From: an uncultured Clostridia bacterium
GTDB taxonomy: Bacteria > Bacillota > Clostridia > TANB77 > CAG-508
Assembly: GCA_944386655.1 (NCBI GenBank)
Contig: CALXBX010000009.1
Span: forward strand, 67,833 to 131,832
Length of the DNA stretch: 64,000 nt
Direction of reading: 5' to 3'
How positions within the stretch are numbered: position 1 is the first letter of the stretch; each line of letters starts with the position of its first letter. The translations under genes and the position numbers were made by a program. Below are positions 3,652 through 56,953 of the stretch, in pieces. The notes beneath the pieces are model-generated. The model was not told where the DNA came from and ran no database searches. It was given only the letters and a program-made list of their open reading frames with translations.

Positions 3652-3706
3652 AAAAGTATAAAATATAAGAAATTGGGAAACATAGGAAAAAAGGAGAAAA
3701 AGTGGA

Positions 3707-4463
3707 ATGGAAAGAAATAAAGGAATAACGATGATATCTTTGGCTGTGACGATAATTGTTCTTATTATCTTAGCGGGAGTAACCATAAATACATTAGTAG
3801 GAGATAATGGAATTATTACTATGGCACAGAAAGCAAAAGAAAATACAGAGTTAGCTAAGTTAGAAGAAGAGCAACAACTAAATAATCTATATGAAGAATT
3901 ACAAAATAACGGAGGAGTCATAGAGGATGGTTCTGGCGCAGAAGCAATAGAAAAGTTAAAAAATTTTAAAAAAGTAATAGCAACAGCAATAACCAATGAG
4001 GGAGTACCAACGCTAGAAACAGATACAGAAGAGACAATGGCAGAAAATATAGGAAAAATATTACAAGAAAGAACGAAAGATGCCACTGCTACAGCAGAAG
4101 ACATAGCAGAAGGAAAAACTGCTTGGGTAAATGGAGAAAAAATAACAGGTACACGGTGCTACAACTACTTCATCAACACGTATTTTGTTAGGGACTATTT
4201 CTGGAAGTGGAACAATAGATGTAAAGAATTTTTATGACAAGTATGAAACCTTAACAAATGAAAATTTTGCCTATGCTATAACAAGTAGAACAATAAGTTT
4301 CGGAAATATTTCTAGTTATAGTGGAGGTGTGGCTGTTCCTTCTTTAAGCTACAATGCTTCAACTGGAATATTATCTATTACAAATTTATCAGCTTCAACA
4401 TATGTTGCAGGAAGGGATTCTTATTCGATTAGTGCTAGTGCCAATATTTATCTTTATATTTAA
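3707..4463 (+). CDS. type IV pilin-like protein (class III signal peptide); +1 frameshift at 4154
   Basis: N-terminus MERNKG/ITMISLAVTIIVLIILAGV…NGIITMAQKAKENT shared with four paralogs. ORF 3707..4237 ends in an aberrant Cys/aromatic tail, while the +1 frame (to 4463) continues as a Ser/Thr-rich beta-type sequence. Removing c4154 (CGG codon) joins them. Confidence 0.6.
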
Positions 4464-8866: not shown

Positions 8867-8879
8867 TTGTGCAATTTAG

Positions 8880-8908
8880 GGACGTTCCTTAAATTGCATT
8901 CCTAAAGT
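8880..8908. repeat. palindromic repeat, GGGACGTTCC-core family (copy a)
   Basis: tgcaatttaGGGACGTTCCttaaattgca; same family at 29422, 29532, 47996, 48044, 50165, 55564. Confidence 0.8.
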
Positions 8909-8929
8909 TCATGAAAGGAAAGAATAAAA

Positions 8930-24152: not shown

Positions 24153-24782
24153 ATGGAAAATGCGTCAAAAGCACTGATTATGGCAGGTGGAATATTTATT
24201 GCCATATTAGTAATAACTCTTTTAGTATTTTTTTATAACAATATAGTAACTGTTCAAAATGCAGATGAGCAGGCAGAAATCATAGAACAATCGGCAGAAT
24301 TTAATAAGCAATATGATGTATATAATAGAAATAATTTATATGGAAGCGAAGTTTTATCATTAGCAAATAAAATGGAGGATTACAATAGAAAAGAAGCAGC
24401 AGAAAAAGGTTATCCAGAAATGGAAATGGAAGTAACCATTAATGACAATGTAGGAACCTATTTTACACGTGGAACTTATTCTGCTCAGCAATTGCAAAAT
24501 ACGCTAGCAAATTTACAAGCAAAAGAAGAGGAATATGCAAATGTTTCTTATTGTGGTAGAAGAATTAGTGATTTATCTACTATGAGAACAAATGAGTTAC
24601 AACAATTATTTAAAGATAACAACAATACAGGAAAACTTGCAGAAGCACAAGCAGTCATTACAAAATATGTTACGCTAAAAGCAGAAGAGACAGAAATGAG
24701 AACAAAAGGATTTCGATGTACACAAGTAGTATATGATGACCAGACAGGTAGAATTGTTTTAATGAAATTTGCATCTACCTAG
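24153..24782 (+). CDS. minor pilin-like protein (MENASKAL family)
   Basis: N-terminus MENASKALIMAGGIFIAILVITLLVF; C-terminal FRCTQVVYDDQTGRIVLMKF shared with paralogs. Confidence 0.5.
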   Translation: MENASKALIMAGGIFIAILVITLLVFFYNNIVTVQNADEQAEIIEQSAEFNKQYDVYNRNNLYGSEVLSLANKMEDYNRKEAAEKGYPEMEMEVTINDNVGTYFTRGTYSAQQLQNTLANLQAKEEEYANVSYCGRRISDLSTMRTNELQQLFKDNNNTGKLAEAQAVITKYVTLKAEETEMRTKGFRCTQVVYDDQTGRIVLMKFAST

Positions 24783-24845
24783 AGAAAAGCGAAGAAAACT
24801 GTAATTTTGTTTTAAAGGTACAACGTAGGAAAGGAAGGGTGAAAA

Positions 24846-25355
24846 ATGGAAAATGCATCAAAGGCATTGCTAATGGCTGCTGCCATTTTGTTAGGAATTA
24901 TGATTATTTCTGTTGGCGTTGCTATTTTTAACACCCTTTCTGGTTTTAGTCAATCTACCATAGCACGAATGCAAGAAAAACAAGTAGCAGAGTTTAATAG
25001 TAATTTTACAAAATATTATGGACAAATAGATGGAAAAGCTATTCAACTAACAATTCATGATATTATAACTGTGGCTAACTTTGCAAAACAGAGTAATATA
25101 GAGAATGAATTGCAAGAAGAAACCGGGTATAACGAATATACCAATTATGTACAAGTAGATGTTAAAATTGGAGGAACAACTATTACAAAACTAGAAAAAC
25201 AGGATGTTAGTACGTATCAAACTTTAATTCAGAATAACAGTTTAGTAGCAGATGAAAATGGAAAATTAACGCAGACAAAGTATTTTATTTGTACCAATTT
25301 GCTTTATAGTGAACAAACAGGTCGAGTTATGTATATCTCTTTTTCAGATAATTAA
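24846..25355 (+). CDS. minor pilin-like protein (MENASKAL family)
   Basis: MENASKALLMAAAILLGIMIISVGVAIF…; C-terminal YFICTNLLYSEQTGRVMYISF. Confidence 0.5.
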   Translation: MENASKALLMAAAILLGIMIISVGVAIFNTLSGFSQSTIARMQEKQVAEFNSNFTKYYGQIDGKAIQLTIHDIITVANFAKQSNIENELQEETGYNEYTNYVQVDVKIGGTTITKLEKQDVSTYQTLIQNNSLVADENGKLTQTKYFICTNLLYSEQTGRVMYISFSDN

Positions 25356-25441
25356 ATTTGTAAAATTTGGTACTAAAATGTAAAAAAAAGTCATTGCAAA
25401 ATGGAAATAATGATGTTATAATAAAAAAAGGAAGAGACAAT

Positions 25442-25870
25442 ATGAAAAAAACATTTTTAATTTTATGTTGTAGTATTATTCTTCTAGTAATTGTTTTTTC
25501 ATTTCTATATTATAATTATCAAGCTGGTATAGCACAGGCACAAAAAAATAATCAGGAATACGAAAGCTATACTACCAACCAAATATTAGGTTCTAGCTTA
25601 ATGACATTAATGAATAAGGCTAGTAATGATAATGAAAAAAATAATGTAGAAAAAGATGCAGAAGGAATGTATATAGAAAATGATACGAATTCTATAAAGA
25701 TAGAAGTAAAGTTTTTAGAAGCAGATATCATAGTAAGTATGGAAAAAATACAAAGCTTAGGAGAAGAACAATTCTTAAAAAATTATCGTAGCATGTCATT
25801 TTCATGTACAAAAAAAGAGTATCATGAAAAAACAAAACAAATCAAATATTTATTATTTGAACAAGTGTAG
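25442..25870 (+). CDS. small membrane protein
   Basis: MKKTFLILCCSIILLVIVFSF… single N-terminal TM; the listed ORF extends upstream without an RBS. Confidence 0.4.
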   Translation: MKKTFLILCCSIILLVIVFSFLYYNYQAGIAQAQKNNQEYESYTTNQILGSSLMTLMNKASNDNEKNNVEKDAEGMYIENDTNSIKIEVKFLEADIIVSMEKIQSLGEEQFLKNYRSMSFSCTKKEYHEKTKQIKYLLFEQV

Positions 25871-25949
25871 TTATTAATTTTCATAAGGAGAAACCTTATG
25901 AAGTAAATATATAAATATATTATTATATAATCAAAGGAGGAAATTTATT

Positions 25950-26387
25950 ATGGAGAATGCATCAAAAGCATTAATTATTGCAGGAGCTATTATATTAGCA
26001 ATTTTAATTATAGCGCTAGGAATGGCGGTATTTAATATGGCATCTAACCCAGCACAAGATGCTGCAGCAAGTATTGAATCACAGGCGGCACAAGCTTTTA
26101 ATTCAACATTTGAGCCATATATTAAAACAAATATTACAGGATCTAGTGTACGTTCTTTATATGATGCTGTAAGACAAAATAATGTTAGAAACGCATCAGA
26201 CGAATCTATGATAATTACAATAGATGGAGCAACAACAGCAGCAGATATTAACACAAAAAGAGCAGCCATCCAAACAGGAAAGAGATATGATGTAACAGCA
26301 GATTATAGTACATCAACAGGATATATTACCACTATTACTGTTACAGAAGCTGGAAGCTCTAGCGGTGGTTCAGGTAGCGGTTCATAA
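25950..26387 (+). CDS. minor pilin-like protein (MENASKAL family)
   Basis: RBS aaaggagg; MENASKALIIAGAIILAILIIALGMAVF…; Gly/Ser-rich C-terminus. Confidence 0.5.
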   Translation: MENASKALIIAGAIILAILIIALGMAVFNMASNPAQDAAASIESQAAQAFNSTFEPYIKTNITGSSVRSLYDAVRQNNVRNASDESMIITIDGATTAADINTKRAAIQTGKRYDVTADYSTSTGYITTITVTEAGSSSGGSGSGS

Positions 26388-26412
26388 ACAAAAAAAGTAA
26401 AGGATATAAGTT

Positions 26413-27153
26413 ATGGAAAATGCGGTAGAAGCTATTAAAATGGCATTTGCTGTTATCGTCTTTGTTATAGCTTTGTCTGTCAGTATGTTTACACTTACTC
26501 AGGTAAAAGCAACATCAGATATAGTTTTATATACAGAGGATGAATTAAATTATTACGATTTTCAAGAAGCTACAAATGCTGGTGAAGAAAATAGAATTGT
26601 AGGATTAGAAACTATTATTCCTACTTTGTATAAGTATTATAAAGAAAATTATACGGTGATTTTCCGTGAGGGAAATTACGATTATACAACAGGTCAGTTC
26701 TCTAATGTAAGTTATATGAAATTGTATGAAACTCCATCTAATGTAAATTTATGGACAAGTTCCTATGCTACGTTAGTAAATAACAAATATGGAGAAGGAA
26801 CCATTACTACCATTAGAGGAAATAGACAAATATTTTCTTTTGACTTAGATGAGGAAACTTTAAGGCATGAAGCATGGACAGGAAGCAACGACAAAATCAA
26901 GAATAATTTAGATTGTTTTTTGACAGGGGAAAGTTATTATAATCCTAATAATAATGAAGAATATATTGATTATGGAGCAAGCAAAAACGTTGGAGTAGGT
27001 GGATTTATAGCTCAATATGGTAATAGTAGATTTGTAGAAACCATAGGAGAATACACTTATAATAGTACACAAACAGAAGATAGCACAGTAGAGGCATCTG
27101 TAAACGCAAGAAAAAAAAGAATTATCATTTTTACTCGCATCAAAAATTCTTAG
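26413..27153 (+). CDS. minor pilin-like protein (MENAVEAIKM variant)
   Basis: MENAVEAIKMAFAVIVFVIALSVSMF… then about 215-aa extracellular domain. Confidence 0.45.
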   Translation: MENAVEAIKMAFAVIVFVIALSVSMFTLTQVKATSDIVLYTEDELNYYDFQEATNAGEENRIVGLETIIPTLYKYYKENYTVIFREGNYDYTTGQFSNVSYMKLYETPSNVNLWTSSYATLVNNKYGEGTITTIRGNRQIFSFDLDEETLRHEAWTGSNDKIKNNLDCFLTGESYYNPNNNEEYIDYGASKNVGVGGFIAQYGNSRFVETIGEYTYNSTQTEDSTVEASVNARKKRIIIFTRIKNS

Positions 27154-27780: not shown

Positions 27781-29424
27781 ATGAAATTACAACATTTAGC
27801 TATTATATTTGTTATTATCATATTACCTATTTCTATGGTAGTAACAGCATATATTCAAACGCAAATAGATACAATAAACTTGCAAACAACTTATACATCT
27901 AAATTGCAGAATGCAACTTATGATGCTATTAAAGCTTTTCAGCTAAATACGATTAATAATAAATATTCTAGTGTCAGTGACTCTAAAATTAGAGATATAG
28001 AAGCATCTATTTCTACTTTTTTTAATTCACTTGGTACGAAAATGGGAGAAAATGGAATAGATCAAGAGTCTTTAAATGATTTTGTGCCGGCAATTTTATA
28101 TGTCATGTATGATGGTTATTATATTTATGGAAAATATAGAAATGAAAGTACAGCTAGTTATCAATATGGCTTAAAACCATATATTTATTATTCTTGTCGT
28201 TATGTAAGAGGAACAGATGACTTTGTAGTAAATTATAGTTTAGATAATGCCATTACTGTTTTTGGAAATATAGATGGAACCTATGTAACACGTTCAGGAT
28301 ACCTAATTAATCCTAGTTTAGTTAGCAACATTAATGAGGCAAATAAAACTTTAGTATATGATGGAGAAACAATAGAAAAAGAAATTTTAACAGAGCAAAT
28401 TGTATTATTAAATGAGGCAGGAGAAGTAATTAATAATTCTTCACCAGTTACTTATCAATATACGGTATATCAAAACGCTAAGATTTATTATGATCCTGGT
28501 GCAACAGATGGTATGACTTATTTTTGGTATACAGATAATAAAAAACAAAGAATCTACGATCAAGACATTTTAAATTATGTAACAAGTATGACGATAGGGG
28601 GAAATTTATATAGCGAGAGTGCTTTTCAATATTATAAAGACGCTTATGAATTTAGTACTTGGGTAAATGAACACATGGGAGATGTTACACAAAGTAATGC
28701 AAGAGATATGGATGGAAATAGCATTTCAGATTTTGCAGTAAATACAGGGGAAGAGAAGATATTCCGTTTGAATAGCATTAATAATCCTTTGTTAGATGGC
28801 TCTACCTTTAATGAAAACAGAATAAGTGTTATTAGAAAAAGCATTCAAACAAATTTAGCATCAGCAATTGCAAATTATAATCAAGGAGCAAATAATAGTT
28901 ATCAATTTGTATTGCCAATTTTTTCAGAAGAAGATTGGGACAAATTAGTAAATAACATTTCCGTTGCAACTTTTATGCAAGGTGTACCAATAGGAACAAA
29001 ATATTTTAATAACTATTGTATTATTACCAATGATAAAAATGAAGAAGTAGTAACAGAAGATTCACTTTATGTCATTACAGAAGATGGAGAAGTACATTTG
29101 CCAACTTGTCAAGATATTATAGGAGAAAATGTTATAGGAGTTTATAGTAATGTTTCTTTTGAAAGACAGTCTATTCATATATCAGATACCTATGAAGTGC
29201 ATTATTATCCACATGCGAATAGTAAATGTTATCATTGTATGGTAAATGTGGCTGCCACCTACGATATAGATGGTTTAATTGGGGGAACAATAGAAATTTT
29301 TGATTCTAGTGGAACAAATCAAACTAGAAATATAAAAGGTACAAGTTTAAGAAAACAATATTTAACAGCTTTAGGAAGAGAACGCTACGATTTATATCGT
29401 ACCAATGACTATTTTGGTGTGTGA
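27781..29424 (+). CDS. TadG-like large membrane-anchored pilus-associated protein (547 aa)
   Basis: N-terminal TM MKLQHLAIIFVIIILPISMVV then large extracellular domain; last gene of the cluster; stop overlaps repeat copy b. Confidence 0.4.
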   Translation: MKLQHLAIIFVIIILPISMVVTAYIQTQIDTINLQTTYTSKLQNATYDAIKAFQLNTINNKYSSVSDSKIRDIEASISTFFNSLGTKMGENGIDQESLNDFVPAILYVMYDGYYIYGKYRNESTASYQYGLKPYIYYSCRYVRGTDDFVVNYSLDNAITVFGNIDGTYVTRSGYLINPSLVSNINEANKTLVYDGETIEKEILTEQIVLLNEAGEVINNSSPVTYQYTVYQNAKIYYDPGATDGMTYFWYTDNKKQRIYDQDILNYVTSMTIGGNLYSESAFQYYKDAYEFSTWVNEHMGDVTQSNARDMDGNSISDFAVNTGEEKIFRLNSINNPLLDGSTFNENRISVIRKSIQTNLASAIANYNQGANNSYQFVLPIFSEEDWDKLVNNISVATFMQGVPIGTKYFNNYCIITNDKNEEVVTEDSLYVITEDGEVHLPTCQDIIGENVIGVYSNVSFERQSIHISDTYEVHYYPHANSKCYHCMVNVAATYDIDGLIGGTIEIFDSSGTNQTRNIKGTSLRKQYLTALGRERYDLYRTNDYFGV

Positions 29425-29450
29425 ACTTTAGGGACGTTCCTTAAAGTTCA
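29422..29450. repeat. palindromic repeat, GGGACGTTCC-core family (copy b)
   Basis: tgaactttaGGGACGTTCCttaaagttca. Confidence 0.8.
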
Positions 29451-29531
29451 TAAAAGTGTAATGTAGGAATGTTCTTTAAATAATAAATAAAATAGAAGAA
29501 GTGATAATTTTGAAATTATGACTTCTTTTTT

Positions 29532-29560
29532 TGAACTTTAAGGAACGTCCCTAAAGTTCA
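29532..29560. repeat. palindromic repeat, GGGACGTTCC-core family (copy c, inverted relative to b)
   Basis: tgaactttaaGGAACGTCCCtaaagttca = exact reverse complement of copy b, 80 bp away. Confidence 0.8.
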
Positions 29561-29626
29561 GAGAAAGAAATGAGAATGAAACTGAAGAAAAATGGGAATA
29601 ATAAAAACAGAAATGGAAAAGAAGGA

Positions 29627-30899
29627 ATGAAAATGAAGTACTTAAAAAGAATAGGGATTCTTATTATTTTATTAATTATTTATATTTATGTTGCATTTAT
29701 TACTTTGTTTCCAGATAGCATTGTTCTAATGCAAGGTGAAAAAATTTCTGTTTTTTCTTTATGGGGAATTCATTTAAAAGAGGCTAGTAACATTAATACA
29801 AGCCTAGAAGGATATGATTTAGGAATTACCCAGACAAAGGTAGTGGGAAATACACCAGAAGAAGAAAAAGATAATGAAAAGGTAGCTAACAATGCAGGAA
29901 AAATGCAATTAACATTTTCTTTATTTGATACAATACCAATAAAAGAAGTTTCTGTGAGTGTAATTCCTAAAACAAAAGTAATCCCTCTTCGGAAATGCTA
30001 TAGGATTAAAACTATACACTAGTGGAGTATTAGTAGTGGGAATGACAGAAATAGAGGGGAATAAACCTTATGAAAATACTGGAATACAAGAAGGAGATAG
30101 AATTATATCAATTAATGAACAAAAAATTAGTAACACAGAAGAATTAATAGAAACAGTGGATGCATCGCGAGGAAAAGAAATTACAGTAAAATATGTTCAA
30201 GAAGATAATACAGAACAAGTAGTAACTATGACACCTACAAAAACAAAAGATAATGAATATAAATTAGGACTTTGGGTAAGAGATGCAGCTGCAGGAGTGG
30301 GAACTGCAACCTTTTATGAACCGGAAAGTGGAATGTTTGCTTCATTAGGCCATGGAATTGCTGACATTGATACAGGTGATTTAGTTACTATTTCTAATGG
30401 GGAATTAGTTACTATGAAATTAGTCTCCATCACAAAAGGTGAAAAAGGAAAACCAGGAGAAATACGAGGTAGTATAGAAAATTCTTCTACTATAGGACAG
30501 GTATATCAAAATACATCATTTGGTATATTTGGAAAAGTAAATAATAAAAATTATTTAAACATAAGTACTCAAGCAATGGAGGTAGCCTCCAGAGAGGAAA
30601 TTACAAAGGGAAAAGCAGAAATAATATGTGAAATAGAGCAAGGAAATCCAAAACGATACGAAATAGAAATTGAAAAAATATATACGGGGAATAATCAAGA
30701 TAATAAAAGTATGCAAATAAAAGTAACAGATGAAGAATTATTAGAAAAGACAGGTGGTATCATACAAGGAATGAGCGGAGCACCTATCCTACAAAATGGA
30801 AAATTTGTTGGAGCAGTTACTCATGTACTAGTTAATGACCCTACAACAGGATATGCTGTTTTTGCAGATTTAATGTTAAAACAAATGAGTCAAACGTAG
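29627..30899 (+). CDS. spoIVB: stage IV sporulation protein B (S55 serine peptidase); +1 frameshift at 29990
   Basis: ORF 29570..30022 (TM N-terminus) and GTG ORF 30036..30899 (PDZ + peptidase: GMSGAPILQNGKFVGAVTHVLVNDP). The +1 frame across the junction reads LGNAIGLKLYTSGVLVVG. The inserted c in cttCgga creates a CGG codon. Confidence 0.75.
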
Positions 30900-46666: not shown

Positions 46667-47983
46667 TTGTTTAAAACCATTAAAAATGCCTTAAAAACAC
46701 CAGACGTACGTAAAAAATTAATGTATACATTATTACTAATCGTTATTTTTAGATTAGGATGTTACATTACCGTACCAGGAGTAGATTCTTTTCAATTAGC
46801 AGAAGCTTTTTCAGGACAAGGAATCTCATCATTAATAGATATGATATCTGGAGGTGCATTCTCTAGATTATCTATTTTTGCAATGTCTATTAGCCCATAT
46901 ATTACGGCATCTATTGTGATACAATTGTTAGGAATGGTAATACCTTCTTTAGAAAGATTAATGAAAGAAGGAGGAGAAGATGGTAGAAACAAAATCAATC
47001 GTTATACCAAAATTCTTACCATTGTGTTAGCATTAATTGAAGGCGTAGGTGTCTACCTTGCTTATCGTTCTTCTGGAATCTTTATTGATACAGGATTCGT
47101 AACAGGAGCAACAGTAGTTATTTCCTTAATGGCTGGAACAGCATTACTTATGTGGCTAGGAGACCAAATTACCAATAAAGGAATAGGTAATGGAATTTCT
47201 ATTATCATCTTTGTAGGTATTATTGCAGGCTTGCCAAGTGGAGTAGTTAGTATTTGGAATTTAATCTTTGCAGGAGGAGTATTCTCCACAACAGGATTAT
47301 TAACAGCACTTGGAATTATAGTGGGAGCAATTATTTTAGTAGCAGGAGTTGTATTTGTACAACAAGCAGAAAGAAAAGTACCAGTACAATATTCTAAAAG
47401 AGTAGTAGGAAGAAAAATGGTAGGAGCACAAAATACACATATACCATTAAAGTTAGCAATGGCAGGAGTTATGCCAATTATCTTTGCCTCTTCCTTTATG
47501 ACATTCCCTGCTATGATTATTCAAATGTTTGTACCAGATATAGCAAGTCAAACAGGATTTTGGAATGTAATCTATAATTTCTCTATGGCAACATCTTCAT
47601 CTAGCGTAGGAATTGGTTATACCATTGCAAACGCAATTGTATATTTGTTGTTAATTATAGGATTTACTTATTTCTATACTTATGCAACATTCAATCCAGC
47701 AGAAGTATCTAATAATATCAAGAAAAACGGAGGATTTATACCAGGAATTCGTGCAGGAAAACCAACTACAGACTATTTAGCCTCTATTATCTCAAAACTA
47801 ACATTATTTGGAGGATTTTTCTTAGCAGTGATTGCTATCCTACCAATGCTTATGAGATTTACAAGTCTAAACTTAGCCTTTGGTGGAACATCTATCTTGA
47901 TTGTAGTAGGAGTTGCATTAGAGACAGTACAACAATTAGAATCACAACTTGTCATGAGACATTATAAAGGATTCTTAGAATAA
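46667..47983 (+). CDS. secY: preprotein translocase subunit SecY
   Basis: 10-TM SecY sequence; TTG start. Confidence 0.9.
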   Translation: MFKTIKNALKTPDVRKKLMYTLLLIVIFRLGCYITVPGVDSFQLAEAFSGQGISSLIDMISGGAFSRLSIFAMSISPYITASIVIQLLGMVIPSLERLMKEGGEDGRNKINRYTKILTIVLALIEGVGVYLAYRSSGIFIDTGFVTGATVVISLMAGTALLMWLGDQITNKGIGNGISIIIFVGIIAGLPSGVVSIWNLIFAGGVFSTTGLLTALGIIVGAIILVAGVVFVQQAERKVPVQYSKRVVGRKMVGAQNTHIPLKLAMAGVMPIIFASSFMTFPAMIIQMFVPDIASQTGFWNVIYNFSMATSSSSVGIGYTIANAIVYLLLIIGFTYFYTYATFNPAEVSNNIKKNGGFIPGIRAGKPTTDYLASIISKLTLFGGFFLAVIAILPMLMRFTSLNLAFGGTSILIVVGVALETVQQLESQLVMRHYKGFLE

Positions 47984-47995
47984 AGAAATAAACTT

Positions 47996-48029
47996 GAACT
48001 TTGGGGACGTTCCTTAAAGTTCTTTTTTT
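47996..48029 (+). terminator. palindromic repeat copy d (GGGGACGTTCC core) acting as secY terminator
   Basis: gaactttgGGGACGTTCCttaaagttc + ttttttt. Confidence 0.7.
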
Positions 48030-48043
48030 GAAATTTGCAATTT

Positions 48044-48070
48044 GCAATTTAGGGACGTTCCTTAAATTGC
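48044..48070. repeat. palindromic repeat copy e
   Basis: gcaatttaGGGACGTTCCttaaattgc, preceded by duplicated tgcaattt. Confidence 0.8.
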
Positions 48071-48073
48071 AAA

Positions 48074-48176
48074 ACATTATGGAAATAAATGACCAATTAA
48101 AAAGGAAAATATAAGAAAAAAGGAACAAGATAAAGGTATAATAAGCCTTATAAAAAAGAACAAGGGGGATAAAAGA
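48074..48176 (+). promoter_or_regulatory. conserved type-B leader of pilin paralogs
   Basis: Similar to 16359-16478 and 55644-55762, including a gataaaggTATAATaagcc -10-like element. Confidence 0.5.
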
Positions 48177-49382
48177 ATGCAAAAGAATAAACAAAGAGGA
48201 ATTACGTTAATTGCTTTAGTAGTAACAATTATTATACTAATCATTTTAGCAGGTGTCAGTATTCAAATGATAGTAGGGGAAGATGGTTTAATTACTATGG
48301 CGAAGAACGCCAAAGAAAATACCGGATTAGCAGAGGTACAAGAAGAAAAAGGACTGAATGAATTAACGAAGGATATGAATAATTATGTACCGATGAAAGT
48401 AGCAGAAGCAAGACAAAAAGGTGAGTTTTTTTATGAGAATACATTATTAGAAGATGATTTAGGAAATAGGTTGAAAGTACCTAATGGATTTAAAGTGGCA
48501 TCTGATTCAGCAACGAAAGTAGAAGACGGAGTGGTAATAGAAGATAGTGACGGAAATCAGTATGTATGGATACCTGCAAAAACAGGAGAAGGAATAATTA
48601 TTCATACAACTGTTGGAGATAGAAGAATGGTTTATACAAGAGTTGCCTATAGTAAGAATATACCAACAGACGAGATAGATGAAGAAACCAATAGTAAAAA
48701 GATAATTCATTCCGATACTATTAACCATTATTATACACAAGCAATGTCAACTGATGAAGAAAAAAGTGTAGATGCAAATGGAGGATACTATATAGGAAGA
48801 TATGAGGCAGGAGATAAAGAGTCAACAGAGGCAAACAAAATGAGAACGGCTACTTCAAATCAAGAAAACACAATAACGATAAAAAAAGGACAAGCGCCAT
48901 ATAATTATGTTACATATACAAATGCCAAAAAATTAGCAGAGAATATGGGTACTGTACAAGAATATACTACTACAGAAACAAAATTACCAAGTAGTTATGC
49001 ATGGGATACAGCAATAAGTTTAATACAAATAAAAAATAATGATTATGGACAAGTTTCAGAAGAAGGAAATTATAAAGATACTACTTTTTCTTATATAGAC
49101 GTAGCAGGAACAGAGCAAATTAAAGAAATTAAAGAACCTGGTGTTGTGGTTACGACAGGTCAAACGATAGCAGTAAGTAATATTTATGATTTAGGCGGAA
49201 ATATGAGAGAATATACTACAGAAGAGTATTCTGATGAGACTCTTCCAGTTACAGATAGAGGCGGATACTTTAATTGTAATTCTTTTGATTTTGCTGCGGG
49301 CTATCGAGATTATAATGATGGTACAGGAGCAGATAAGTATGGGATGAGAGTGGCTTTGTATTTTAAGGTAGAAAATGAATAA
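48177..49382 (+). CDS. type IV pilin-like protein with FGE-sulfatase-like C-terminal domain, inserted between secY and adk
   Basis: MQKNKQRG/ITLIALVVTIIILIILAGVSIQMIVGEDGLITMAKNAKENT; C-terminus …TDRGGYFNCNSFDFAAGYRDYNDGTGADKYGMRVALYF. Confidence 0.7.
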   Translation: MQKNKQRGITLIALVVTIIILIILAGVSIQMIVGEDGLITMAKNAKENTGLAEVQEEKGLNELTKDMNNYVPMKVAEARQKGEFFYENTLLEDDLGNRLKVPNGFKVASDSATKVEDGVVIEDSDGNQYVWIPAKTGEGIIIHTTVGDRRMVYTRVAYSKNIPTDEIDEETNSKKIIHSDTINHYYTQAMSTDEEKSVDANGGYYIGRYEAGDKESTEANKMRTATSNQENTITIKKGQAPYNYVTYTNAKKLAENMGTVQEYTTTETKLPSSYAWDTAISLIQIKNNDYGQVSEEGNYKDTTFSYIDVAGTEQIKEIKEPGVVVTTGQTIAVSNIYDLGGNMREYTTEEYSDETLPVTDRGGYFNCNSFDFAAGYRDYNDGTGADKYGMRVALYFKVENE

Positions 49383-49518
49383 AAGAGAAAATGCTTATCA
49401 TGCAAAGAAAATAAAACCACATTTTACATATTATGTAAAATGTGGTATAATAATATGTAGGAACTTTATTTTGGAAGAATTTCCGAGAAAATTAAACGGA
49501 AAGAAAAGGAGAAAAAAC

Positions 49519-50109
49519 ATGTCAGCACAGGTAAGAAAAGTAGCAAAGAAAAAAGAATACTACAGAGGAGCAGATCGGTTTAGCATAGGAGACAATGTTG
49601 TTTCCTTTGCAATAGGTGCTATCATTATGTTTAGTATCTTTGTTCTGTTCATGATGGACAAATCCGCACTCCAAGAAACAATGAAAAATGTTACCTTGAA
49701 AAAGGAAGAAATTCCCATTGCTCAGGAGAAGATTACTGTTCAAGAGGAAAAGAAAGAAGAAACTGCAGAGGAGATTATGATAGAAGACAAAGAGGAGCCA
49801 GAAGCAGTAACTTTCTATACAGAAGAAAATGTAGACTTACTGGCAAGACTTATGCATGCAGAAGAAGGTGTTCTGCTGCAAAGGCAGAGCATCGAAGATG
49901 CAGAACTTGCACATAAGTTATGTGGATCAGTAATCTTGCATCGGACAGAAATTGGCTACTCAGGAAGCTCCGGAAATAGTGAAGCAATGGGCAGAAGAAC
50001 TACTGCGTGACGGTCCGATTGGACCGGAAAATATGATTTATCAATCTGAGTTCCCTCAAGGGCAGGTCTATACACAGATTGATAATCAGTTCTTTGGTTG
50101 CTTGAAGTA
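49519..50109 (+). CDS. membrane protein with GC-rich C-terminal region (possible cell-wall-hydrolase-like LARLMHAEEG motif); +1 frameshift at 49942
   Basis: MSAQVRK… single TM. Listed ORF stops at 50010; removing c49942 (CGG) opens the frame to 50109. GC content and codon usage deviate in 49850-50100. Confidence 0.4.
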
Positions 50110-50164: not shown

Positions 50165-50193
50165 TGCAATTTAAGGAACGTCCCTAAATTGCA
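50165..50193. repeat. palindromic repeat copy f (inverted orientation)
   Basis: tgcaatttaaGGAACGTCCCtaaattgca. Confidence 0.8.
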
Positions 50194-50294
50194 AGTTCAT
50201 TTAAAAAATTCAAAAAATCTCTATACTTTTGGGACAAAAAATGCTATAATAAACATAGTTGTGAATTGTAAAACATAGGAAGAGGAGGAAAAAA

Positions 50295-50966
50295 ATGTAT
50301 ATTGTTATGCTAGGAAAACCTGGTTCAGGAAAAGGAACCGTTGGAAAAATGTTGTCAGAGGCTTTGCATATGATACACATTTCTAGTGGAGAGTTATTTA
50401 GAAGTTATATTAGTAAGGCTGGAGAGATTGGAAAACAAATAGAAGAGTATGTGGCAAAGGGAGAATTAGTGCCAGATGAACTTGCTATTCAATTAGTAGA
50501 AAAGAGATTATTAGAGGCAGATTGTAAAAATGGAGTTATACTAGATGGTTTTCCAAGAACAGTAAAGCAAGCAGAAGCTTTAGATAGTTTTCTAAAAAGA
50601 CATCATCAAAAAATTAATATTGCAGTGGAATTGGATTTATCTGATAAAGATATTATAGATAGAATTGTAAAAAGAAGAGTATGTTCTAATAAAGATTGTA
50701 GAGAAGTATATAATTTAGAATTTAAAAAGCCAAAAGTAAAAGGAATTTGTGATGTTTGTGGCAGTCCTTTAGAGCAAAGACCAGATGATAGTATAGAAAC
50801 AGTAAAACAAAGATTACAAGTACATTATGCAACAGCAGGAAAATTAGTAGAATATTATAAAGCCCAAGATTTATTATACACAGTTAAATTAAATATTCAT
50901 TCTGGAAAAACTTCAGAAGATGTAGCAAAAGAGGTAGAAAAATATTTAGAAACAAATCCATCATAA
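50295..50966 (+). CDS. adk: adenylate kinase (zinc-lid type)
   Basis: GKPGSGKGT P-loop; Cys4 lid CSNKDC…CDVCG. Confidence 0.9.
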   Translation: MYIVMLGKPGSGKGTVGKMLSEALHMIHISSGELFRSYISKAGEIGKQIEEYVAKGELVPDELAIQLVEKRLLEADCKNGVILDGFPRTVKQAEALDSFLKRHHQKINIAVELDLSDKDIIDRIVKRRVCSNKDCREVYNLEFKKPKVKGICDVCGSPLEQRPDDSIETVKQRLQVHYATAGKLVEYYKAQDLLYTVKLNIHSGKTSEDVAKEVEKYLETNPS

Positions 50967-55033: not shown

Positions 55034-55558
55034 TTGGCAACGAATAGAAAATTAGGTAGAACAACAGACATTCGTTTAGCTATGCTAAGAAGTCAATTAA
55101 CAGATTTAATTTTGCATGAAAAAATAGAAACAACAGAAGCTAGAGCTAAAGAAGTAAAAGCAATGGCAGATAGTATAATTGCTTTAGCAGTTAAAGAAAA
55201 AGATAACTTTGAAAAAGTAAAAGTAAAAGTTGTAAAAGCAAAATTAGATAGCAAGGGAAATAAAGAAACAGAACTTGTAAAAAGCAAAAATGGTAAAGAA
55301 TATTTAAGAGTTGTAAAAGAAGAAACAACAGAAGAAAGACAAAAAGATATGCCATCTAGATTAAATGCAAGAAGAAAAATGATGAAAATGCTTAATAAAG
55401 TAAAAGACGAAAAAGGAAATAACATTGATTTACCTGCTAAATTATTTAATGAAATAGCACCAAAATACGAGGGAAGAGTTGGAGGATACACACGTATTAT
55501 CAAAACAGGACCACGTAGAGGAGATGCAGCAGAAGTAGTTATTTTACAATTAGTATAA
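55034..55558 (+). CDS. rplQ: 50S ribosomal protein L17 with about 55-aa Lys/Glu-rich internal insertion
   Basis: N-terminus [16 protein letters not shown] and C-terminus [25 protein letters not shown] canonical; 174 aa against about 120 aa typical. Confidence 0.85.
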
Positions 55559-55563
55559 AGAAA

Positions 55564-55600
55564 ATGAACTTTGGGGACGTTCCTTAAAGTTCATTTTTTG
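55564..55600 (+). terminator. palindromic repeat copy g acting as rplQ terminator
   Basis: atgaactttgGGGACGTTCCttaaagttcat + tttttt. Confidence 0.75.
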
Positions 55601-55643: not shown

Positions 55644-55762
55644 AGAATAATGTCAAAATTATGGAAATAAGTAACCAGCAAAAAGCGAAAATAAAAAATA
55701 AGAAAAAGAAAGATAGAGGTATAATCCTTCTCGTAAGAAAGAAAAGCGAGGAGGATTTTGTC
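55644..55762 (+). promoter_or_regulatory. conserved type-B leader of pilin paralogs
   Basis: Near-identical blocks to 16359-16478; TATAAT at 55720-55725; RBS gaggagg. Confidence 0.55.
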
Positions 55763-56953
55763 ATGTCAAAACAAAAGAAAAATCAAAGAGGGATTACTTT
55801 AATTGCATTGGTGGTAACTATCATTGTGTTAATGATTTTAGCTGGTGTAAGTATTAACATGATAGTAGGAGACAATGGATTGTTAACAAAGGCACAAGAT
55901 GCAGCAGATATATATGAACAGGCAAGTAGTAATGAACAAAGTGCACTAGATAGTTTAGAAGAGATAATGAATGGATATTTAAATGATGATAATCAAGGAG
56001 AAAAAACATTAGTAGAAATGTATGACTCAGGAGAATTAAATATAGGCGATTATGTAGATTATAAAAATCCAACAAGTGGAAGTTATACAGCATATGCAAC
56101 AGACACAGGAGTGGATGATGAAGGTTTTGAATTTAACGCTTATATAACAGATCAAGTATATGATGTTTCAAATAACCAATTAAATTGGAGAGTACTAGGT
56201 AAAGATGAAACTACCGGAGGAATCAAATTAATAGCAGGAAGTCCAATGAAAAGTAATACTGTGATACAAGGAGTAGATGTGCCATATTTATTTATGTATG
56301 GAGCAAAGGCATATGTAAATGGACTAGGCATATTAAATGATATAGGAGCGCTATATAAAAATGAATATGCAATAGATGCTAGAAGTGTAAATATTGAAGA
56401 TATTAATGCTATAACTGGCGTGGAAACAGAAGAGAATATAAAAAATGTAAATTTAAGTGTATATATAAACGGACTACAGTATGGAACACCATATAATTAT
56501 ACAAATCAATATACACCAGAAAGCTGGATAAATGGCAAAAATACAACAGAAATATCAGGAACGGTTGATGGATATGCCTACTTAGTGAATACACAAATAG
56601 ATTCATATCCATATGTGACAGTATCCAATACAAGAGCTTATGAGATGTTGTTTGATAATATAGAATATCAAACAGGAAAAAATTATTGGCTGGCATCATT
56701 TGGAACATATGCTTATCAAAATTTTGTTGGATTTAGTTTAAGTATGGTTGCTGAAAATTTAAAAATTTCTAATATGAGTACCAGTGGTTGTTTTGCTGGA
56801 ATGATGTCTTTTTTTGACTCAGATGATGGTGCTAGTTATGGATATTATGCAGGCGTACGTCCAGTAGTTATTTTAAATCCTAATGTTACACAGGAGCAGA
56901 TACCAGTAATAGAAGATCAAACAGAAGAAACATGGAATGTTTCAGGAAATTGA
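55763..56953 (+). CDS. type IV pilin-like protein (paralog) inserted after rplQ
   Basis: MSKQKKNQRG/ITLIALVVTIIVLMILAGVSINMIVGDNGLLTKAQDA; about 350-aa C-terminal domain ending GVRPVVILN. Confidence 0.65.
   Translation: MSKQKKNQRGITLIALVVTIIVLMILAGVSINMIVGDNGLLTKAQDAADIYEQASSNEQSALDSLEEIMNGYLNDDNQGEKTLVEMYDSGELNIGDYVDYKNPTSGSYTAYATDTGVDDEGFEFNAYITDQVYDVSNNQLNWRVLGKDETTGGIKLIAGSPMKSNTVIQGVDVPYLFMYGAKAYVNGLGILNDIGALYKNEYAIDARSVNIEDINAITGVETEENIKNVNLSVYINGLQYGTPYNYTNQYTPESWINGKNTTEISGTVDGYAYLVNTQIDSYPYVTVSNTRAYEMLFDNIEYQTGKNYWLASFGTYAYQNFVGFSLSMVAENLKISNMSTSGCFAGMMSFFDSDDGASYGYYAGVRPVVILNPNVTQEQIPVIEDQTEETWNVSGN

Follow-up and report, generated by a model that had tools for sequence, protein, structure and literature searches.

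The question raised by the DNA examined here, a window of 64,000 nucleotides from a contig of an uncultured Clostridia bacterium (CALXBX010000009.1, positions 67,833 to 131,832), is what kind of element a short palindromic repeat represents that recurs between its genes, and of which one copy (48043-48071) lies between secY and a pilin-like gene. An initial annotation of the window had likened this repeat to repetitive extragenic palindromic (REP) sequences and BIMEs, and had found its sequence unfamiliar. The likeness is supported by our analysis, as the repeat is extragenic, dispersed, able to form a hairpin and arranged in inverted doublets. Taking all the results together, we consider it very probable that the repeat is a REP family maintained by a cognate, domesticated enzyme resembling the REP-associated tyrosine transposases (RAYTs) and bearing a helix-turn-helix (HTH) domain, and that terminator activity and hot spots of insertion and deletion are side effects of this association. 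The family itself is undescribed, hence its unfamiliarity, while the kind of element is a known one: this is a new REP/REPIN-RAYT family, TIRtron-like in character, in Firmicutes.

The core of the repeat, GGGACGTTCC, occurs exactly seven times in the window (at 8879, 29431, 48004, 48052 and 55574 on the plus strand and at 29542 and 50175 on the minus strand), against 0.16 occurrences expected from 100 shuffles preserving dinucleotide composition, in which the maximum was one. The seven-copy family reported initially is thus real, and a search of the window with a 19-mer, allowing three mismatches or fewer, yielded no copies of the repeat beyond these seven. Alignment of the flanks showed every core to be embedded in a unit of 29 nt, T-GAACTTT-R-GGGACGTTCC-TTAAAGTTC-A, or in a version of this unit with GCAATTT/AAATTGC arms; the two arm variants of the initial annotation, GAACTTT and GCAATTT, are therefore both present, and they differ by compensatory changes. 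The coordinates first given were right to within 1-2 nt for six of the copies, the remaining one (8880-8908) having been shifted by 10 nt.

Examination of the structure showed that the top strand of the unit folds, as DNA or as RNA, into an unbroken stem of 13 bp with a 3-nt CGT loop and one G.T(U) wobble, formed by the first G of the core with the T that follows CC, and that the opposite strand has an A.C mismatch at this point. Whichever base stands at the variable R position, A or G, its partner is T, the G variant giving a second wobble that is again confined to the top strand. What had been described as an asymmetric core is hence asymmetric only in part, the asymmetry amounting to a single strand-marking G.T wobble in an otherwise perfect palindrome. 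The z-scores of the DNA and RNA folds ranged between -3.8 and -6.9, and an Rfam search of the whole window at gathering thresholds returned tRNA-Glu alone, with no known RNA family over the repeat. In related loci the arms take the forms GAACTTT, GCAATTT, GGGATTTT, GAAATTT, GGACTTT and TAACTTT, each with its complementary 3' arm. Across 24 distinct full-length variants 95.5% of the pair cells are paired, changes are seen on both sides at 4 stem pairs, and the observed covariation was reached by none of 500 shuffles; structures slid along the sequence gave pairing of 70% at most. According to a position-wise profile of 183 copies, the information content falls to background just outside the 29 nt, with the sole exception of a modest enrichment in T on the 3' side of the top strand (+20 to +24). 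A pattern-free scan of the related loci for hairpins of the same geometry recovered almost only the exact core, with the G.T wobble invariant, and no core "repaired" to a perfect palindrome.

The distribution of the repeat was examined by an exact-pattern scan (GNANTTTRGGGACGTTCCTTAAANTNC) of one genome per species, which returned at least 106 loci; all counts on 183 copies rest on these listed loci. Every one of them comes from a metagenome-assembled genome (MAG) of uncultured gut Clostridia, including samples from chicken, rabbit and water deer, and the unit is present in at least 27 species-level assemblies. The 29-mer is identical across these species (27 or more), whose enzymes (see below) show only 55-64% identity. 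Among the matches listed, 178 of the 183 copies are intergenic and the other five touch the ends of open reading frames (ORFs), with 96 copies in "+" and 87 in "-" orientation. Partial data of each of two MAGs contain at least 30 cores, and the density of the repeat is about 1 per 9 kb. The genes flanking the 106 loci are diverse, with ruvB, pgi, tspO and genes for a ZIP transporter and a transglycosylase among them, and clustering of 857 flanking ORFs gave no dominant neighbour family. A phage origin was also considered and dropped, as the repeat pattern had no match in 2.9 million viral contigs.

Among the matches listed, copies less than 400 nt apart form 32 "+-", 6 "++", 3 "--" and 0 "-+" pairs, and the spacing of the "+-" pairs clusters around 65-80 nt with a mode of about 70 nt. 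The pair in opposite orientation at 29422 and 29532, which the initial annotation had pointed out, belongs here, with 81 nt between its units.

A RAYT or an integrase had been named as the gene to look for in connection with the repeat, and scanning the ORFs enclosed by "+ ... -" repeat pairs identified, in related genomes, a RAYT-like Y1 transposase gene bracketed by exactly this repeat. In locus L019 (1764-2534, minus strand) the gene encodes a protein of 256 amino acids that matches Pfam Y1_Tnp with E 1.4e-10 and 41.8 bits (cut-off 23). Proteins of this group have about 255 residues, and weak matches to Sigma70_r4, HTH_Crp_2 and HTH_23 at residues 227-256 were found in 15 of 23 members, the AlphaFold model having helices at residues 190-254. 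The best NCBIfam model is NF047646, "REP-associated tyrosine transposase" (REP_Tyr_transpos), with 65-68 bits, and the IS200 model of the same collection scores 19-21 bits against a cut-off of 55. Public data contain more than 2,200 relatives, the few named ones being called only "transposase". An alignment of 23 homologues identified as invariant the HUH motif (N59-H60-A-H62), the segment Y120-I-H-N-N-P-V and a YxxSS motif. Searches of the PDB with phmmer and with a profile gave no significant match to 4ER8, the E. coli RAYT bound to a REP hairpin (E 0.39), and since these sequence searches were not significant the relationship was settled by other means: hhalign pairs the HUH and tyrosine motifs with those of E. 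coli RayT (E 0.0027), and the AlphaFold model (pLDDT 86.9) has 4ER8 (4er8_A) as its best Foldseek match in the PDB (E 8e-6, TM 0.68 on target), further matches being transposases of IS608, ISDra2 and IS200 (2VJV and 2XM3 among them). Judged by its profiles and predicted fold, the enzyme is an HUH/Y1 enzyme of the RAYT type rather than of the IS200 type.

In L019 the start of this gene is preceded, at a distance of about 60 nt, by a "+" unit, and its stop codon is overlapped by a "-" unit, so that the end of the protein, ...HEL*, is encoded by CAT GAA CTT TAA, which is the REP arm; L024, L067 and L120 present variants of this layout. Further loci were retrieved through the protein and are hence unbiased by the repeat: L116-L119 (protein P0006) have a "+" unit upstream and a "-" unit at the stop, L200 (P0005) has a "-" unit at the stop, and L203-L205 (P0009) have a GCAA-type and a GAAC-type "+" unit upstream together with a GCAA-type "-" unit that encodes ...NAI*. 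In the bracketed loci (L019, L024, L067, L116, L200, L203 and L120) it is the 3' copy of the repeat that supplies the stop codon. L203 has the same two arm types as the window, and its sample (ERZ28616147) also contains the exact SecY of the window, making it plausible as the RAYT locus of the window's own organism.

A scan of metagenomes with protein alignment extended the comparison to 80 loci with 37-61% identity. Many of these distant relatives have upstream hairpins with different arms and the same box (for example, TGAACAAAGGGACGGACTTTTTGTTCA and TGTCAATGGGGACGCCCCTTTTTGACA), and one of them, with GTGATCCTTTTTGGGACGCGCCAAAAAAGGATCAC upstream, has an inverted copy at the stop codon. In 40 of 63 distinct loci the motif GGGACG stands on the strand of the gene no more than 250 nt upstream, whereas 0.06 per locus would be expected from the background rate. 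Once the genes had been re-called by their HUH and tyrosine motifs, the upstream flank contained direct GGGACG in 29 of 53 cases and the inverted form (CGTCCC) in 0 of 53, and the downstream flank contained the direct form in 2 of 51 and the inverted form in 31 of 51. The polarity around the enzyme gene is therefore that of the "+ ... -" doublets. The arms co-diverge with the protein and the GGGACG box is kept, as in P0083 (53% identical), which is flanked by GTGAAATTTAGGGACGCTTGAAAAATTTCAC-type hairpins. A further conserved motif, TGGGGGCAAAA (or TGGGGGACAAAA), separates the upstream REP from the start codon in L019, L024, L116, L200, L203 and L113, some 30-40 nt before the latter; judging from its position it may serve as promoter or operator, or be bound by the HTH domain.

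Examination of the gene's surroundings identified the same neighbours for P0083 in all 23 contigs read, and one context each for P0006, P0005 and P0009. In both P0006 and L019 (64% identical) the gene is directly upstream of polA, that is, in synteny across two species; in P0009 and L024 it is upstream of queH, and in P0005 it lies between ruvB and addA. One MAG, CAKNNA01, contains a second, diverged homologue (L066). From these neighbourhoods the RAYT-like gene appears to behave as a fixed, vertically inherited gene and not as a multi-copy insertion sequence, which is the behaviour described for RAYTs (PMC5581495). Its repeated position beside replication and repair genes (polA, ruvB, addA) is a separate observation that may reflect chance or a functional link to replication.

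Placing these results among the known systems requires taking both likenesses and differences into account. With the REP/REPIN-RAYT systems (E. coli REP/BIME with RayT, or TnpA-REP, PDB 4ER8, and the Pseudomonas REPINs; PMC3116915, PMC3337134, PMC5581495) the Clostridia family shares short extragenic imperfect palindromes in many copies, a predominance of inverted doublets with a spacing near 70 nt, an apparently single-copy HUH/Y1 enzyme whose gene is bracketed by inverted repeat copies, what appears to be one fixed genomic context per species and the apparent use of some copies as terminators. Members of the GTAG REP super-family have an unpaired GTAG at one end of the palindrome (Di Nocera 2013, PMC3733652), whereas the Clostridia family has no 5' GTAG tag, its conserved determinant being the apical GGGACG box together with the G.T wobble. 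The Clostridia enzyme is also about 90 amino acids longer than the classical RAYT, with a C-terminal HTH, the host is an AT-rich Firmicute and not a Proteobacterium, and the enzyme gene takes its stop codon from the 3' REP.

The closest published description is that given by Di Nocera et al. (PMC3733652) for the TIRtron/TIRYT elements, in which a RAYT-like gene has inverted repeats with GGGGWSAS on both sides; some of these repeats are self-complementary, moderately repeated and dimeric. Common to both are a longer RAYT-like protein with a C-terminal HTH, inverted repeats that flank the gene at roughly fixed distances and in some cases overlap its 3' end, and a G-rich flanking motif, which is GGGGWSAS in the TIRYTs and GGGGACGT or AGGGACGT here; the Clostridia box, (G/A)GGGACG(T/G/C), fits GGGGWSAS at only 6 of 8 positions, and GGGGACAC fits it fully. 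The latter was seen in L090 (3619-3729) and L093 (5675-5778), where two REP doublets enclose a different inverted pair with GGGGACAC / GGGACACTC, and its agreement with the TIRYT motif hints at a second repeat family in these two genomes. According to Quentin et al. (PMC6006769), TIRtron/TIRYT corresponds largely to TnpA-REP subclass 2.1, with a C-terminal HTH, and no REP-like sequences were found beside the genes of this subclass, in contrast to the Clostridia repeat, a genuine hairpin REP that occurs dozens of times in each genome. As regards subclass 2.1 or Group 1, the likeness was drawn from published descriptions, and membership is no more than a lead. In the literature on RAYTs, REPINs, Clostridia and TIRYTs, which was not searched by repeat sequence and did not cover subscription sources, we found no description of this repeat or of any REP family in Firmicutes.

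There are two further resemblances. The TnpA proteins of IS200/IS605 elements (IS608, ISDra2) have in common with the RAYT-like enzyme the catalytic fold, the recognition of imperfect single-strand hairpins and strand-specific determinants. However, the RAYT-like gene appears to be single-copy in a fixed context whereas the insertion sequences are present in multiple copies, its flanking hairpins are inverted whereas the left and right ends (LE and RE) of IS608 are on the same strand, and it has no tnpB partner gene; an IS200/IS605 insertion sequence was rejected on the single context per species, the inverted flanking hairpins and the low score of the IS200 model. The CGTC-tagged REPs (Rickettsia RPE, Neisseria dRS3; Di Nocera 2013) also have CGTC, which here is part of the reverse-complement box (CGTCCC), and likewise show a predominance of head-to-head dimers, head-to-tail ones being rare. 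Their tag, in contrast, is unpaired at the end of a stem of 8-9 bp and goes with no transposase, whereas the Clostridia motif is apical or internal and transposase-associated, and this resemblance is probably coincidental.

The results above show the family, its structure and distribution, the polarity of its doublets and its association with the RAYT-like gene; by analogy with E. coli TnpA-REP and IS608 TnpA, we infer how catalysis, strand choice at the replication fork, termination and the role in insertions and deletions may come about. The repeats would be non-autonomous hairpin elements of 29 nt, often in REPIN-like inverted "+-" doublets, recognised and spread by a single-copy, vertically inherited HUH/Y1 transposase of the RAYT-like kind, whose gene lies at another place in the genome and has copies of the repeat on either side. 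In single-stranded DNA at the fork the top strand would fold into the 13-bp hairpin; this strand is purine-rich and presumably leading-strand sequence, which would place the hairpin on the template of the lagging strand. The cue for the strand and structure to be bound by the enzyme may lie in the apical GGGACG box and in the G.T wobble, which reads A.C on the opposite strand, and the catalytic tyrosine Y120 with the HUH motif (H60/H62) would nick and rejoin the strand, copying REPs to new intergenic sites and leaving occasional half-unit duplications and rearrangement junctions behind. Copies past gene ends that are followed by a T-run could act as intrinsic terminators or 3' mRNA hairpins, and REPs may be the break or recombination points at which accessory segments come and go.

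Several observations weigh against a REP family maintained by such a transposase. The 183-copy profile has no GTAG, CGTC or other end tag and no conserved bases outside the 29-nt hairpin. The pattern of the genome scan fixed many positions, and the invariance of the core among the copies so selected is partly by construction, a bias mitigated by the extra copies within the same loci and by the pattern-free hairpin scan. The score of the enzyme with NF047646 is below the equivalog cut-off of 80 bits. No RAYT-like gene was found by tblastn within the 64-kb window, and because the window has none and the rest of the genome was not read, for the window's own genome the link to a RAYT is drawn from relatives. 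Apart from a group found in L024 and L095, the spacers of the 16 doublets aligned mostly show no relation to each other, unlike those of classical REPINs, whose doublet replicates as a whole (Bertels & Rainey 2011, PMC3116915); the doublets thus share polarity and spacing but not one master element, and the idea that they are copies of a single master REPIN was abandoned on the spacer alignment. Finally, transposition was not seen to occur. Six independent contigs from metagenomes, all of the window's species, agree exactly through 47975-48180, around the copies at 47995-48071, with no evidence of recent movement there, and the secY-adk locus is stable at present.

The window has a G+C content of 31.5% and contains the S10/spc/alpha ribosomal-protein operons (secY 46667-47983, adk 50295-50966, rplQ 55034-55558), a sortase gene, a spoIVB-like gene and several pilin-like genes. 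All seven copies had been placed at junctions with pilin or surface-protein genes, which is only partly true. The first unit (8870-8898, +), with GCAATTT arms (TGCAATTTAGGGACGTTCCTTAAATTGCA), starts 4 nt past the stop of the sortase gene and has an SH3-domain gene on its other side; direct reading of the sequence shows it to be abutted by an orphan 3' half unit of the GAAC-arm type (TTCCTAAAGTTCA, 8899-8911, +). The doublet, both members of which have GAACTTT arms, lies between a 547-aa gene without assigned function and the spoIVB-like gene. Its left member (29422-29450, +) overlaps the stop of the ORF at 27781-29424 and its inverted right member (29532-29560, -) is 10 nt upstream of the ORF at 29570, and a weak likeness in the spacer, again from direct reading, may be a decayed core (TAGGAATGTTCTTTAAA, 29464-29480, +; 14/17 identity to TAGGGACGTTCCTTAAA). 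Between secY and a pilin-like gene there are two units, 47995-48023 (+, GAACTTT arms, R = G) and 48043-48071 (+, GCAATTT arms), the second of which, the copy singled out initially, is the left bracket of a two-gene insert (48177-50010). The right bracket is an inverted unit with GCAATTT arms (50165-50193, -) between a 211-aa gene without assigned function and adk; an orphan AGTTCA (50194-50199) directly follows it, after which the ORF present here in L026 and L105 has been replaced. The last unit (55565-55593, +, GAACTTT arms) stands between rplQ and a pilin-like gene.

The positional enrichment next to pilin paralogues suggested by the initial annotation was tested and was not borne out, as 5 of 10 pilin-like genes and 228 of 772 other genes lie within 300 nt of a REP (p=0.17). 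The proximity to pilin or surface genes in the window is for this reason no general rule, and the genes enclosed by REP pairs elsewhere include ruvB, pgi, tspO and those for a transglycosylase and a ZIP transporter. As to the pilin-like genes themselves, the one at 48177, which has an N-terminal methylation motif and an FGE-sulfatase-like domain, interrupts with the 211-aa ORF (48177-50010) an otherwise conserved ribosomal-protein operon. The paralogues at 14339-16105, 48177-49382 and 55661-56953 share the N-terminus ...KGITLIALVVTIIVLIILAGVSI and a conserved leader (ATTATGGAAATAA...), and stretches related to this N-terminus are found at 3706-3841 and 16490-16625; in the 48177 copy a stop codon interrupts the leader frame, and the 55661 copy keeps the leader as an N-terminal extension.

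Could the repeats be plain intrinsic terminators, or 3' hairpins stabilising mRNA, that are alike by convergent or conserved selection and involve neither mobility nor a transposase? Two of the seven copies of the window are terminator-like: the 47995 unit, flagged by a terminator scan, is 12 nt past the secY stop and followed by T7, and the 55565 unit is 7 nt past the rplQ stop and followed by T6. The initial count of three copies doubling as terminators was overstated, since only these two precede a T-run, the one at 29532 having its T-run before and not after it. A REP doublet is also found after rplQ in L057, another species with 80-86% DNA identity. The enrichment in T at +20 to +24 of the top strand agrees with such a function, as do the G.U wobbles, which favour the transcribed top strand, and the fact that 61 of 95 single copies are co-oriented with the upstream gene, at a median of 21 nt from its end. 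However, a T-run is present on only about 30% of the co-oriented single copies and 34 of the 95 are antisense to the upstream gene, for which reasons termination can be at most a secondary use. Moreover, independent terminators would not be expected to share one identical 29-nt sequence at dozens of places in each genome and across at least 27 species, the second member of a doublet has no terminator tail, and the repeat specifically brackets the RAYT-like gene. We regard an explanation by termination or mRNA stability alone as quite improbable.

Slightly less probable again is that the units are sites of site-specific recombination bracketing mobile cassettes, in the manner of integron attC sites, Xer/dif-like sites or the inverted repeats of invertible promoters, in which case each "+ ... 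-" pair would delimit a segment open to insertion, excision or inversion. Two inverted arms of 11-13 nt around a short asymmetric centre can be made out in the unit, which is the geometry of a tyrosine-recombinase core site, and at distances of 300-3000 nt there are 13 "+-" against 7 "-+" pairs. The secY-adk junction, which was compared across the window, L026 and L105, also speaks for it, as an insert of 1.7-2.1 kb bracketed "+ ... -" is absent in L105 and has its junctions within 7 nt of the repeat. In L105 the order is secY, REP(+), a degenerate GCAA REP(+), a small ORF and adk; L026 has an extra segment of 1.69 kb that begins 7 nt past the GCAA REP(+), with a pilin-like gene followed by a GCAA REP(-); and the window has the insert of L026 plus a different second ORF (49375-50010), and in place of the small ORF after REP(-) a filler of 32 nt that starts with the orphan arm fragment AGTTCA. 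Nevertheless, among the 857 clustered flanking ORFs, not all of which were scanned against Pfam, no recurrent neighbour of the repeat encodes an integrase or a recombinase of the Xer or serine type, and the orientations are mixed (96 "+" and 87 "-"). The compensatory changes of the arms point to a folded single strand and not to duplex arms bound by protein, and inverted sites would invert a segment rather than insert or excise it. Most of the enclosed genes are housekeeping genes (ruvB, pgi, transglycosylase), and the gene that is consistently bracketed is the Y1 HUH transposase.

The role of the repeat at boundaries of accessory genes, proposed initially, has local support, in that two presence/absence differences at the secY-adk junction end 0-7 nt from a repeat, but the link to pilin genes is not general. 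Exact tandem duplications of the 20-nt "5' arm + core" segment were found in two MAGs (L043:2129-2168 and L038:6120-6159), and these, together with the half units at 8899-8911 and 50194-50199, suggest from their sequences a breakage and rejoining at a fixed point beside the core. Going further, the "+ ... -" bracket might be a general cargo-carrying unit of the HTH-bearing RAYT clade, so that accessory genes would be enclosed and moved with the polarity already seen around the transposase gene and in the empty doublets, the pilin-like gene having been delivered to the secY-adk junction of the ribosomal-protein operon by REP-guided single-strand transposition. We consider this unlikely; if it were true, RAYT/REP systems would be active gene-cassette vehicles in gut Clostridia and not inert domesticated repeats.

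A function as DNA-uptake signals for natural competence can be given hardly any credence: an invariant core of 10 nt and several pilin-like paralogues in the window would agree with it, and the DNA uptake sequences (DUS) of Neisseria are often inverted pairs in terminators, but the conserved object is a hairpin with covarying arms and not a bare 10-mer, 97% of the copies are intergenic while uptake signal sequences (USS) and DUS are common inside genes, the density of the repeat is far below that of DUS/USS, and a cognate RAYT-like gene exists. A DNA-uptake sequence, a transcription-factor operator, an attC/dif-like site and a DDE-type miniature inverted-repeat transposable element (MITE) were also rejected in view of the covariation of the arms, the strand specificity of the wobble and the association with a Y1 enzyme.

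Other features of the window deserve mention. Its plus strand has a strong and uniform purine excess (GC skew +0.21, AT skew +0.21) and carries nearly all long ORFs, which is consistent with a single replichore whose genes are co-oriented with replication. The spoIVB-like gene (30036-30899; PDZ and Peptidase_S55), with the REP doublet immediately upstream, is preceded by a separate 150-aa ORF (29570-30022) that may be its N-terminal part, the gene being split or mis-started. Four tandem units of 23 bp containing AAAAATCACGGAATG (12745-12835) closely precede an AAA_14/DUF4143 ATPase gene (12889-14169) and might represent iterons or repeats of an operator-like kind, and four adjacent paralogous genes starting MENASKAL... 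(24153, 24846, 25950 and 26413) occupy 24153-27153; a Pfam scan of those at 24153, 24846 and 26413 gave no significant match.

Work on REP/REPIN-RAYT systems has dealt nearly exclusively with Proteobacteria and a small number of further Gram-negative phyla, and the survey of PMC3733652 contains no family from Firmicutes. The present family leaves the understanding of how these systems work unchanged; what it adds is a clear REP population associated with a clade of RAYT-like enzymes bearing an HTH, in uncultured Clostridia of animal and human guts. For specialists its noteworthy features are the apical box, doublets of strict "+-" polarity whose spacers are unrelated, a stop codon that comes from the repeat and the 29-mer identical in at least 27 species. 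In the annotation of MAGs of gut Clostridia the repeat can help to recognise intergenic hairpins, terminators, assembly break points and rearrangement hot spots. The apical GGGACG box, kept across RAYTs with identities down to about 37%, provides a clean pair of sequence and structure with regard to the choice of hairpin and strand by the enzyme.

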